64,000 nt of DNA from Oligoflexia bacterium. Its GTDB lineage: Bacteria > Bdellovibrionota > UBA1018. The notes below the pieces were generated by a model. The model searched no databases. It saw only the letters and a program-made list of their open reading frames with translations, and had not been told where the DNA came from. The stretch spans positions 130,433 through 194,432 of the forward strand of contig CAIZRG010000051.1 in assembly GCA_903935335.1 (NCBI GenBank). Reading direction: 5' to 3'. A program made the translations under genes and the position numbers. Shown piece after piece: positions 29,792-31,417 of the stretch (the stretch's first letter is position 1; every line of letters starts with the position of its first letter).

Positions 29792-31417
29792 TTACCTGTC
29801 CTTAAATCGTTCACCAGTTGGAATCCCCTCACCTTTGCCACCTTTTTTTAAAATTTCCAATTCCCCTGTGTCCTTATTTTTATAGATATCGTACTCGGAA
29901 ATCTTCGCTTTCTTACCCAAGAAATCCTTCTTTAGCTCATGTGCATCGATTCCTAGCTTTTCAAGTTGCTTGTCTGATATCTTTTCAATATTTCCTTTGA
30001 CATTTTGCCCTGCAGAATCGTCTTCTTTCCCTGAAGCGAAGGTATTGTTATCCCCTGCCTGAGGAGCCATGGCTGGAGTAGTGGTTGAAGAGCTACTGGC
30101 TTCTCCTGCTTGGCCTGGTAAAAACTCGGTTCCATTTCCCGTTCCAAGACTTTCTTGAGGAAGAGTGGTAGGAGGAGGATTGAAGTGGTCATAAATTTGC
30201 TCACCTAAATAAACACCCACCAATCCTGCTGCTAGAGCTGCTCCAGCTGGGGTCATTAACGCCGCTGCTTCTCCTGCTGCTACCGCCATTGCTTCGGCAT
30301 GTACAACTCGTACTGCTCCTGCTGCTAAGGCCATTGCTTCAGCTTGTGGGGCTTGGAAGCCAGCCAATTCTGGAATCACTGGAACTGGGATACCCAGTGA
30401 TTTGCAATTATGCACTAAAACATCATAGGCATAGTAATTGTGATTGCCTCGGACATCGAGATTATAAACTGTAAAATCCCCTTCGTCGATCTCGTTCTCA
30501 TCTAAGGTAATCGTTTCACCTGAGATGGTGAGGAACTGGTCTCCTGGAATCAAATCCTGGGCTGCTATCCATTTCCTTTGATTTACAACATAAAAGGGAT
30601 GTCTATCGGTTGCTCGGATGACCTTCTCACCTAGGGTCAATTTCCTGAGGTGATCCACTTGATTTTTAATCAATGCCTGAACTTCACCCACTTCACAGGC
30701 TCCGGTACCCTCGCTATCCAAAGACAAGTTACAGCTTAACACTTGATCACCCACTCGAACTGAAGAAATCGGCTGAGAGTGATAGCCCTGAGCTGAGGCA
30801 TCCTTCAAGCTCACGAGAGTATCGCCTGGGAAACAAATCTCTTCTAAGCCACGAAGACTTTTTTTAATCCGTTTATCACCTTCAGTTTCTATTCGTCTAA
30901 TTTCTTCAGCGAAATCTGCATCCTGCTTTTCTCGATATTCTTTTTCATAAGCCGCCCTTTCAGCCTCGATTTCTCTCATTCCTTGAGATTCGAACATGTC
31001 AAACTCAAACTGCATTTGTCTTTCGAGCTCATTATAAATCCTGAGATTTTCTTCAGCCTTTCGTTGCTTTTCAGCTTTGAGTATCGCTTCATTTCTACGA
31101 GCACGAGCTGCGTCATCGGCAGCATTGCGTCTAGCTAATTCTTCAGGACTAGGTCCAGGATAAACACGAGTCCCTGCCCACCAAGGGTTACTAATGGTCA
31201 TTGTATCTGTCGATGAAGAAGAGGAGGAACTGGGTATATTACTGGTTGGATTGCTGGGTGGATCGCTAAAAAACCTACCCGTTTGGCCCATGTGCTTCCA
31301 AAGATAATCTAAACCCGGCTCATCCCCTGAAGCGAATGAAGATTGCTGCAAGAGCATAAACGATAAAACACTCATCAAAAAAGCTTTTAAAACTGATGCG
31401 CTATACTTCGAAAACAT
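29792..31417 (-). CDS. secreted polymorphic toxin: signal peptide, coiled coil, Hint/bacterial-intein-like domain (CFPGDT ... VLVHNC), Ala-rich linker, conserved pre-toxin module, unclassified ~80-aa C-terminal toxin domain (CT1)
   Basis: Signal peptide MFSKYSASVLKAFLMSVLSFMLLQQSSFASG after an AAGGAAA RBS (track ORF starts 14 codons earlier, at 31459). The Hint domain shows hallmarks: N-terminal CFPGDTLV, then VYNLDV..NHNYYA..VLVHNC. These are followed by ...GTEFLPGQAGEASSSSTTTPAMAPQAGDNNTFASG and then a K-rich C-terminus. Confidence 0.8.
   Translation of the reverse strand: MFSKYSASVLKAFLMSVLSFMLLQQSSFASGDEPGLDYLWKHMGQTGRFFSDPPSNPTSNIPSSSSSSSTDTMTISNPWWAGTRVYPGPSPEELARRNAADDAARARRNEAILKAEKQRKAEENLRIYNELERQMQFEFDMFESQGMREIEAERAAYEKEYREKQDADFAEEIRRIETEGDKRIKKSLRGLEEICFPGDTLVSLKDASAQGYHSQPISSVRVGDQVLSCNLSLDSEGTGACEVGEVQALIKNQVDHLRKLTLGEKVIRATDRHPFYVVNQRKWIAAQDLIPGDQFLTISGETITLDENEIDEGDFTVYNLDVRGNHNYYAYDVLVHNCKSLGIPVPVIPELAGFQAPQAEAMALAAGAVRVVHAEAMAVAAGEAAALMTPAGAALAAGLVGVYLGEQIYDHFNPPPTTLPQESLGTGNGTEFLPGQAGEASSSSTTTPAMAPQAGDNNTFASGKEDDSAGQNVKGNIEKISDKQLEKLGIDAHELKKDFLGKKAKISEYDIYKNKDTGELEILKKGGKGEGIPTGERFKDR
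30052..30127. repeat. copy C of the 76-bp core, inside the full-length toxin gene; the wider repeat spans ~30028..30140
   Basis: Same core string, here within CDS 29792..31417. Confidence 0.8.

Follow-up and report, generated by a model that had tools for sequence, protein, structure and literature searches.

The locus described here raises the question of whether the short, lysine-rich C-terminal tip of a predicted secreted toxin (CT1), together with the gene lying directly downstream, represents a new toxin-immunity family, as a preliminary description of this DNA had proposed, or whether both partners belong to families that are already catalogued. The window analysed is a stretch of 64,000 nucleotides from an Oligoflexia bacterium (contig CAIZRG010000051.1). 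In our view the best explanation, to which we assign a probability of roughly 85%, is that CT1 is the Ntox33 tip of a secreted, HINT-processed toxin, and that the next gene encodes a DUF4279 immunity protein.

Architecture of the toxin gene

CT1 lies at the end of a 550-aa open reading frame that runs without interruption to a stop codon at 29792-29794. An alternative start (ATG 31417) would give a product of 541 aa, and both variants are present as called proteins (P0153, 550 aa; P0005, 541 aa). As listed, the ORF extends over 29792..31459 and gives a 555-codon numbering, in which CT1 comprises residues 478-555; in the numbering of the 550-aa toxin it comprises residues 473-550. The protein has the make-up of a typical polymorphic toxin, with a predicted signal peptide, a charged and probably helical region, a PT-HINT module, an Ala-rich segment, a linker and the tip:

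29792..31444, minus strand: complete gene for the polymorphic toxin, 550 aa with the ATG at 31444 as start (ORF list and translation; Pfam PT-HINT and Ntox33)
31331..31444, minus strand: predicted Sec signal peptide, MQTTTKRKIMFSKYSASVLKAFLMSVLSFMLLQQSSFA, then SG
30836..31150, minus strand: charged Glu/Arg/Lys-rich region between signal peptide and HINT, from composition in translation
30407..30835, minus strand: PT-HINT autoprotease module (pre-toxin), from the Cys of CFPGD to His-Asn, then Cys (VHN followed by C)
30191..30367, minus strand: Ala/Gly-rich hydrophobic segment 3' of HINT, with hydropathy peaking around residues 370 and 394

The putative Sec signal was read by eye, from a basic n-region, a hydrophobic core that coincides with a hydropathy peak, and an S-F-A motif. 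The charged region at 30836..31150 returned no Pfam match, and its sequence suggests that it is probably helical. Assignment of the HINT module is based on matches to both PF07591 PT-HINT (50.3 bits, cutoff 27.7) and TIGR01443, the model for the C-terminal splicing region of inteins (23.6 bits, cutoff 15.6). The Ala/Gly-rich segment contains a 35-nt direct repeat (30268-30302 and 30313-30347; repeat family D4), and a segment resembling it is also found in two relatives of the toxin, P0007 and P0008.

The earlier placement of the tip after a conserved pre-toxin module is confirmed, with PT-HINT upstream and CT1 forming the last 78 aa; the 79-aa C-terminal peptide then quoted is likewise encoded exactly as given, on the minus strand, at the C-terminus of ORF 29792..31459. 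The range ascribed to it, 29792-30050, does contain the peptide (29795-30031), but its upper bound is set too far out, taking in a further 19 nt of linker, and the range as a whole does not divide into complete codons.

The tip belongs to the Ntox33 family

29795..30028, minus strand: CT1, variable C-terminal toxin tip, 78 aa (PF15533 Ntox33 match)
29801-29992, minus strand: Ntox33 core of CT1 (PF15533)

CT1 is a regular member of Ntox33 (Bacterial toxin 33), a toxin family that is already catalogued. Taken alone, it matches PF15533 in Pfam with 49.9 bits (cutoff 28.4, E 4.6e-13), and the whole toxin protein does so with 44.8 bits against the same cutoff; with this match, and with the family's DAHELK motif present, the tip can no longer be called ‘unclassified’. 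Other features ascribed to it were correctly recognised: it is rich in lysine, which makes up 20% of the quoted peptide (16 of 79 residues) and 23% of its 66-aa core (pI 9.1), and no HNH, GHH, deaminase, ART or known RNase model from Pfam is found in it.

A word-indexed homologue search proved too shallow, recovering three proteins for CT1 and one for the immunity protein, and the homologue sets were taken instead from an exhaustive phmmer search plus a profile query. In this way, 367 representatives related to CT1 were found at E<=1e-3. Among the 152 proteins retrieved, 130 have an Ntox33 domain that runs to their final residue, and every one of the 83 short relatives matches the PF15533 model. 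Among the 50 long members, the scaffolds include PT-HINT (9), RHS repeats (8), PT-VENN (3), TPS/haemagglutinin repeats (1) and an S-type pyocin (1).

The [DN]xHxxK motif was defined along with the family in 2012 by Zhang et al. (PMC3482391), and an H-K-D triad has since been proposed for Ntox33 (PMC9424270). In CT1, the corresponding residues are encoded at:

29930..29947, minus strand: DAHELK, the [DN]xHxxK motif (D29, H31 and K34 of CT1), from an alignment of 152 domains
29882-29893, minus strand: YDIY, containing D48 of CT1, a putative catalytic residue together with D29, H31 and K34

Across the 152 aligned domains, these columns are conserved at 92% (D), 94% (H), 99% (K) and 99% (D48); besides the His, Lys and Asp, two Tyr and one Thr are near-invariant. 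CT1 retains all 19 of the 19 strongly conserved family positions, D29, H31, K34 and D48 among them. The second family motif, DxxxD, is matched less clearly: CT1 reads D48-I-Y-K-N52, and with D closing the motif in 55% of members and N in 32%, it carries the common N variant.

The downstream gene and its pairing with Ntox33

29383..29787, minus strand: candidate cognate immunity gene, DUF4279 / FdL-Imm5, 134 aa (PF14106)

The gene that follows begins with an ATG at 29787, 4 nt past the toxin stop codon and on the same strand, and ends at 29383. Its resemblance to DUF4279, as noted in the preliminary description, is that of a true family member: the protein scores 69.6 bits against PF14106 (cutoff 25, E 3.5e-19), aligned over model positions 4-116 of 116. 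Judging from position and family, its product is a candidate for the cognate immunity protein of CT1.

A scan of related loci, based on a core-only Ntox33 alignment, revealed the same arrangement elsewhere. In 32 of 35 Ntox33 genome loci, drawn from at least five phyla and including free-living Firmicutes and Bacteroidota, an ORF of 128-149 aa begins at the toxin stop, and DUF4279 is the ORF directly 3' of the toxin in 31 of 32 independent other loci, a count that makes the Ntox33-DUF4279 link quantitative. The link itself is already in the literature; a study of 2022 gave DUF4279 the name FdL-Imm5 as a family of immunity proteins and tied such ferredoxin-like families to Ntox33 (PMC9424270), and a report of 2026 describes a Salmonella pair of Rhs-Ntox33 and DUF4279 (PMC13304343).

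We therefore give hardly any credence to the proposal that CT1 is an unclassified domain, or that it forms with its partner a new toxin-immunity family. The lack of an HNH, GHH, deaminase, ART or RNase model, and of a structural neighbour in PDB or BFVD, could be read in its favour, but the Ntox33 cutoff is comfortably exceeded, the short relatives match the model without exception, the family has been in print with its motif since 2012 and the pairing since 2022 (and again in 2026), and the pairing recurs at almost every locus. Since both families and their association are catalogued, the pair should not be advanced as a new family.

Cassette exchange, purifying selection and stored cassettes

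29344..30019, minus strand: 676-bp tip and immunity cassette in common with metagenome contig L001 (5769-6444), from nucleotide comparison

Apart from the 676-bp block, at 93.5% identity, the locus and metagenome contig L001 have no nucleotide match; the toxin and the L001 scaffold protein are 41% identical, yet their last 75 aa are 100% identical. An identical tip on such divergent scaffolds is a clear natural example of cassette exchange. Within the tip, 11 codons differ, each of them synonymously and none non-synonymously, and the tip has therefore been under recent purifying selection; in the immunity gene, 17 changes are synonymous and 9 non-synonymous. These 11 synonymous changes against a 93.5%-identical copy, along with the 367 phmmer relatives, indicate that CT1 and its DUF4279 partner are not a product of chance. 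An intact Ntox33 copy under strong purifying selection, on a clean 676-bp cassette with its immunity gene, would also offer a convenient model for the study of Ntox33 function.

Repeats around the tip, an array of orphan cassettes, and the neighbouring genes complete the picture:

30000..30139, minus strand: 140-nt repeat copy 1, encoding the pre-toxin linker (GTEFLPGQAGEASSSSTTTPAMAPQAG..FASG); three copies, 88-100% identity
28054..28959, minus strand: orphan cassette array (repeats and sequence/ORF reading)
28820-28959, minus strand: linker repeat copy 2 (repeat comparison)
about 28482-28819, minus strand: orphan tip CT2, frameshifted at a G6 run (sequence/ORF reading)
28237-28482, minus strand: CT2 partner, 81 aa (ORF reading)
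28054-28193, minus strand: linker repeat copy 3 (repeat comparison)
31490..32860, minus strand: upstream paralogue with signal peptide, RCC1 repeats and PT-HINT (Pfam RCC1 and PT-HINT)
25900..27129: β-solenoid/RING-finger protein nearby

In the alignment, identity between the linker repeats ends just past the FASG codons, at ~30029, which is the tip boundary, and the 140-nt repeat is thus positioned such that it likely serves as a ‘homology handle’ for the swapping of toxin tips. The orphan array also contains CT3, a short stub; CT2 and its 81-aa partner gave no Pfam match even at E<=10. The upstream paralogue, whose HINT region is 44% identical to that of the toxin, stops 12 aa past HNC and carries no toxin tip. 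The predicted signal peptide and PT-HINT, the tripled linker repeat, the orphan CT2 and CT3, and the shared 676-bp block together place the locus among polymorphic toxin systems.

We considered whether the locus could instead be a decaying relic, in which CT1 and its partner have stayed intact by chance while their expression or use has been lost. The frameshift in CT2, the CT3 stub and the tipless paralogue might suggest as much, as might a promoter scan that performed at the level of shuffled sequence (9 promoter-like sites against 9.2 expected), with no convincing promoter or terminator found. Against this, the 550-aa ORF is uninterrupted, the residues conserved in the family are all present, and the tip codons that differ from L001 have changed only synonymously; moreover, orphan or decayed cassettes 3' of an intact toxin are described as normal for polymorphic toxin loci in PMC3482391. 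Decay is thus an improbable explanation. The scans of the window gave no rRNA, tRNA or Rfam match.

Structure models and the activity of the tip

The AlphaFold model of CT1 (mean pLDDT 81.6, core about 90) has the order strand-helix-helix-strand-strand-strand, a predicted α+β fold; the model of the immunity protein, built with database proteins as input, has a pLDDT of 91.9. The Foldseek search that had been suggested for the CT1 model returned no significant structural neighbour (best E 1.3 in PDB, 0.27 in BFVD), and the immunity protein model gave no significant PDB match. Sequence and profile searches of the PDB with CT1, the Ntox33 profile, the immunity protein and the DUF4279 profile were also negative; PMC9424270 likewise reports no matches, and the most recent review tables the family as ‘novel fold, unknown’ (PMC13460014).

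Kinship with colicin D and colicin E3, which belong to the BECR RNases, was considered and is unsupported: the Foldseek probability for colicin D is at most 0.06 over 20-25 columns, and the colicin E3 ‘Cytotoxic’ Pfam match is weak (E 0.093, in 1 of 22 cores). A PepSY-like fold was also set aside; 4 weak PepSY_2 matches among the 83 proteins disappeared when Ntox33 cores were scanned alone, so these stem from the N-terminal regions. There is in addition a weak likeness to DUF6440, a family with no assigned function, in 3 of 22 Ntox33 cores (best E 6e-4), which involves the β-hairpin.

What the tip does to its target is a matter on which our search of the literature found no experiment with any Ntox33 member. 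Its target would most probably be RNA, and it may act as a nuclease, an assignment that we put forward tentatively and at somewhat under even odds; as no structural or profile neighbour was found, the basis for this is the set of conserved polar residues together with the basic charge. The near-invariant His, Lys and Asp, with two Tyr and a Thr, resemble an active site, the basic core would suit a polyanionic substrate, the immunity protein is of a cytoplasmic type and lacks a signal peptide, as would fit a target inside the cell, and the discoverers of Ntox33 placed it among predicted RNases. These same points tell against a second possibility, itself credible although short of probable, that CT1 is an Ntox33 domain that is not a nuclease and acts instead on the membrane, on a nucleotide or cofactor or on an essential protein, or by tight binding without catalysis. 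This would accord with the lack of any fold or profile link to the nuclease superfamilies (colicin D and ‘Cytotoxic’ included), with published accounts that give the family a novel fold and no known activity (PMC9424270; PMC13460014), and with a domain that is very small, at about 65 aa, and whose β-hairpin weakly resembles DUF6440. We think it unlikely, albeit conceivable, that Ntox33, this copy included, is a minimal enzyme some 65 aa long, whose fold is without a counterpart among solved structures and whose His-Lys-Asp site carries out a toxic reaction unrelated to those of the known nuclease superfamilies.

A proposed model for toxin delivery and neutralisation

We propose a model for how the locus probably operates. 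The N-terminal Sec signal peptide would export the 550-aa precursor, whereupon PT-HINT could cleave itself at its C-terminal His-Asn/Cys junction to release a fragment of ~200 aa, made up of the Ala-rich segment, the linker and Ntox33. We suggest that this fragment enters a neighbouring bacterium, where the basic 65-aa Ntox33 domain may strike an essential target via H31, K34 and D48; inside the producer, the acidic DUF4279 protein would bind and block the tip. The tripled 140-nt linker repeat, in turn, may allow stored tip and immunity cassettes to recombine into the expressed gene. Of this model, the computational results establish which domains are present, which residues are conserved, how the genes pair across genomes, where the cassette ends and that selection is purifying; the steps of export, cleavage, entry, attack on a target and neutralisation are inferred from them.

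The model takes rival bacteria as the target. Eukaryote-like proteins nearby, namely the neighbouring HINT paralogue with its RCC1 repeats and the β-solenoid/RING protein at 25900..27129, suggest a host-associated lifestyle and with it a eukaryotic target, but we see only a slim chance of this, given that a dedicated and closely linked immunity gene implies a toxin able to harm its bacterial producer, and that Ntox33 is otherwise found on interbacterial scaffolds (CdiA-type PT-VENN, Rhs and S-pyocin) and in free-living Firmicutes and Bacteroidota.

Comparison with known systems

As originally described (PMC3482391), Ntox33 shares with CT1 a predicted α+β fold, the [DN]xHxxK motif, a position at the extreme C-terminus and attachment to a signal-peptide (T2SS-class) toxin. 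CT1 differs in having DxxxN in place of DxxxD, and whereas the 2012 table lists no processing protease, repeats or immunity protein for the family, PT-HINT and DUF4279 are both found here; the locus thus adds an architecture with predicted HINT processing and Sec export to a family first tabled without protease or immunity partners.

The S8-PTS / ABP toxins of Gram-positive bacteria (PMC9424270; PMC13460014) are alike in having Ntox33 with the proposed H-K-D triad and an immunity protein from the superfamily, named there as ferredoxin-like, that includes FdL-Imm5 (DUF4279), and in the Sec-dependent export and proteolytic release of the tip that we predict for our toxin. Their receptor-binding domain is BetaH and their peptidase a separate S8 enzyme; neither is present here, where there is instead an in-line HINT autoprotease, a charged and probably helical region and an Ala-rich segment. 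The PAAR-RhsA-Ntox33 effector of Salmonella SPI-19 (PMC13304343) forms the same two-gene unit of Ntox33 tip and DUF4279, but is a 1369-aa protein with an Rhs cage, delivered by type VI secretion, in contrast to the 550-aa protein of Sec/HINT type encoded here. With the small, metal-independent BECR RNase toxins colicin D and colicin E3 there is, at most, a possible functional likeness, in that these too combine a small basic α+β domain, conserved His and Lys and a small acidic immunity protein; the Foldseek and PDB profile results place CT1 outside that group.

PT-HINT toxins in general (PF07591; Zhang et al. 2012) share the organisation seen here, in that the HINT module directly precedes the variable tip, the N-terminal part is conserved, the linker is repeated and orphan cassettes lie downstream. 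We see no essential difference from these; the tandem, toxin-less RCC1-HINT paralogue is, nonetheless, an unusual neighbour.

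Toxin gene and domain layout

The tip is a further member of the Ntox33 family with its usual DUF4279 partner, set in an ordinary PT-HINT polymorphic toxin locus. The toxin gene is laid out as follows:

31459 to stop codon 29792-29794, minus strand: uninterrupted toxin ORF (ORF list and translation)
N-terminus, minus strand: Sec-type signal peptide, MQTTTKRKIMFSKYSASVLKAFLMSVLSFMLLQQSSFA then SG, predicted from sequence and hydropathy
After the signal peptide, minus strand: Ser/Pro-rich stretch, then a Glu/Arg/Lys-rich region, probably helical
30407-30835, minus strand: HINT module, from the Cys of CFPGD to VHN then Cys (PF07591 PT-HINT, 50.3 bits, cutoff 27.7)
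After the HINT module, minus strand: hydrophobic segment rich in Ala and Gly, containing a 35-nt repeat
C-terminal part, minus strand: Pro/Ser/Thr-rich linker, then the Ntox33 tip, CT1

Starting from the in-frame ATG at 31444 yields a protein of 550 aa, and from that at 31417 one of 541 aa; both versions have been called in public assemblies (P0153, P0005). The preliminary description had placed the tip behind a pre-toxin module, and this is borne out by the PT-HINT match in the same protein; the end of the module additionally scores above the cutoff of TIGR01443, a model of the intein C-terminal splicing region (23.6 bits against 15.6). For HINT modules sitting directly ahead of a toxin tip, release by self-cleavage has been proposed (Zhang et al., PMC3482391). 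The HINT form is common among Ntox33 proteins, and the whole layout recurs in two close relatives of the toxin (P0007, P0008).

Within the Ala-rich post-HINT segment, a 35-nt direct repeat with 45-nt spacing (30268-30347, minus strand) encodes AEAMALAAGA and AEAMAVAAGE, and an Ala/Gly-rich segment lies at the same place in P0007 and P0008; membrane insertion is one possible role.

CT1 as a member of Ntox33

The C-terminal peptide originally quoted matches the last 79 residues exactly (29795-30031), with the upper bound of 30050 taking in 19 nt of linker, and its description as lysine-rich holds (20% lysine; the 66-aa core has a pI of 9.1). It had, however, been called unclassified, and Pfam assigns it to PF15533, Ntox33 (‘Bacterial toxin 33’), at E 4.6e-13 and 49.9 bits (curated cutoff 28.4). 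Exhaustive phmmer searching of 1.84 billion representative proteins returned 367 relatives at E<=1e-3 (130 at E<=1e-10), with the Pfam Ntox33 match also found in 83/83 short and 49/50 long relatives. Of the 152 proteins retrieved, 130 have the domain running right up to their final residue.

In the alignment of these 152 domains, the strongly conserved columns are D20, L23, G27, D29, A30, H31, K34, G39, Y47 and D48, followed by Y50, T55, G56, K63, G64, G65, G67, T72 and G73, and all are retained in CT1. The motif used to define Ntox33, [DN]xHxxK (Zhang et al. 2012, PMC3482391), is present as DAHELK, whilst the second motif, DxxxD, reads DIYKN, Asn being the second-ranked residue at that column (32% of the 152 domains).

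The scaffolds carrying the domain in the 50 long proteins include PT-HINT (9), RHS repeats (8) and CdiA-type PT-VENN (3), with TPS/haemagglutinin repeats, an S-type pyocin domain and SpvB/TcdB once each; from this variety, we infer that the Ntox33 tip is a shuffled warhead serving many delivery routes.

Ntox33 cores also show a weak but recurrent similarity to Pfam DUF6440 (11/83 proteins; 3/22 cores, best E 6e-4, in two alignments of the family), and phage DUF6440 proteins give low-probability Foldseek matches to Ntox33 over a β-hairpin; the two families, both without assigned function, may be remotely related.

The DUF4279 partner

29787 (ATG) to 29383, minus strand: candidate immunity ORF, 134 aa, its ATG four nt past the toxin stop

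The reading of this pair as toxin tip and candidate immunity gene was correct. The downstream protein covers the full PF14106 DUF4279 model at 69.6 bits (cutoff 25). Scanning the core Ntox33 alignment against one genome per species yielded 35 loci, from Firmicutes, Bacteroidota, Photorhabdus, Campylobacterales and Acidobacteriota, the source genome of the window not being among them; in 32 of these an ORF of 128-149 aa begins a few bases at most from the toxin stop, and 31 of those 32 ORFs are DUF4279 by Pfam, such that the pairing is nearly obligate. Earlier publications also describe it: DUF4279 has been named as immunity family FdL-Imm5, with ferredoxin-like immunity families tied to Ntox33 (PMC9424270), and in Salmonella SPI-19 a PAAR-Rhs-Ntox33 effector is paired with DUF4279 immunity (PMC13304343). 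The suggestion of a new toxin-immunity family thus falls, both halves being catalogued.

The AlphaFold model of the immunity protein is very confident (pLDDT 91.9); its Foldseek matches, none significant (best E 0.047), are mostly to ferredoxin-like proteins, compatible with the published FdL class but not proof of it.

Genomic neighbourhood and likely target

The window is chromosomal and belongs to a metagenome contig of 431,822 bp, holding dnaB, rpsF, tatC, grpE-dnaK-dnaJ, a Bat/MoxR operon, a type III glutamine synthetase and pilus/T2SS-type ATPases; no RNA genes were found in its 64 kb. For a 1496-aa ORF directly upstream of the MoxR/Bat operon (17249-21739, minus strand), Pfam gave no match at E<=1e-5. 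Two further genes lie beside the locus:

31490-32860, minus strand: upstream toxin-less HINT paralogue, with signal peptide, three RCC1 repeats, charged region and PT-HINT
25900-27129, plus strand: protein of 409 aa, YdcK-type β-solenoid repeats followed by a RING finger at the C-terminus (zf-RING_5, Prok-RING_4)

The paralogue stands in tandem with the toxin gene (PT-HINT modules 44% identical), and, as it stops 12 residues past its HNC junction, lacks a toxin tip. Either it is a toxin that has lost its tip, or it is a HINT protein serving some other role. The eukaryote-like RCC1 repeats and the ubiquitin-ligase-type RING protein suggest a host-associated bacterium. We nevertheless favour a bacterial over a host target for the toxin, given the dedicated immunity gene and the interbacterial scaffolds of the Ntox33 family.

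Fold and possible activity of the tip

AlphaFold, given 83 sequences, modelled CT1 with confidence (mean pLDDT 81.6; about 90 across residues 11-60). The model runs strand, helix, helix, strand, strand, strand, placing D29, H31 and K34 on helix 2, and Y47, D48 and Y50 on the following strand. The Foldseek comparison proposed in the preliminary description gave no PDB match better than E 1.3 (entries to April 2026) and no BFVD match better than E 0.27, and searching PDB chains by sequence and by profile found no match; this absence of structural relatives is consistent with the entry for Ntox33 in a 2026 review table, ‘novel fold, unknown’, listed without experimental validation (PMC13460014). 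A relation to colicin D was rejected as unsupported, the few Foldseek matches spanning only 20-25 columns at a probability of at most 0.06.

As a tentative best guess, to which we give somewhat less than even odds, the tip may be a nuclease, most likely an RNase; this draws on the near-invariant His, Lys and Asp, the basic surface and the acidic immunity protein of cytoplasmic type.

Cassettes and exchange

The remaining worth of the locus lies in its clean evidence for cassette exchange, and in an intact pair with which to ask what Ntox33 does. Its cassettes are marked by a linker-coding repeat:

30000-30139, 28820-28959 and 28054-28193, minus strand: 140-nt repeat, three copies, 88-100% identity
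28482-28959, minus strand: orphan tip CT2 behind repeat copy 2, with a frameshift at a six-G run (about 28731-28736)
28237-28482, minus strand: 81-aa candidate CT2 immunity ORF, overlapping the CT2 stop and placed like an immunity gene
28054-28193 and on to about 28010, minus strand: third-cassette stub, repeat copy 3 with about 26 codons, then a stop

The copies are near-identical through the FASG codons and then diverge at once, the point of divergence coinciding with the start of the tip. After frame correction, CT2 is an 84-aa tip (TAEHTEVFPDGRVRYYFKEV...NHYPPTAKELGK) that matches nothing in Pfam, even at E<=10, nor any PDB sequence; in contrast to CT1, it may represent a toxin domain that is genuinely unclassified. 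The 81-aa ORF that follows it has no match in Pfam or NCBIfam. Past the CT1 immunity gene, ahead of the next copy of the linker repeat, a 90-aa LRV/HEAT-repeat protein is encoded (29048-29320, minus strand; PF01816, 24.8 bits against a cutoff of 21.6); it may be an orphan immunity protein that no longer has its toxin tip.

A PT-HINT toxin on metagenome contig L001 is 41% identical to the window toxin overall, with unrelated linkers, yet its final 75 residues match CT1 at 100% identity, and the two DUF4279 proteins share 93% identity. At the DNA level the two loci resemble each other only in a single ungapped block of 676 bp (30019 to 29344 in the window, 5769-6444 in L001; 93.5% identity), which holds just the tip and immunity gene. 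The 12 nucleotide differences in the tip fall in 11 codons and are all synonymous, whilst codon changes in the immunity gene are 17 synonymous and 9 non-synonymous. Together, the shared block and the all-synonymous changes indicate that the tip moves as a unit and is under strong purifying selection, an argument for CT1 being functional.

In contigs L001 (1-4700) and L002, Ntox33 genes adjoin IS66- and IS3-family transposase genes, with an RHS/Tox-HNH-HHH toxin also nearby in L002; these neighbours are consistent with toxin islands carried along by insertion sequences.
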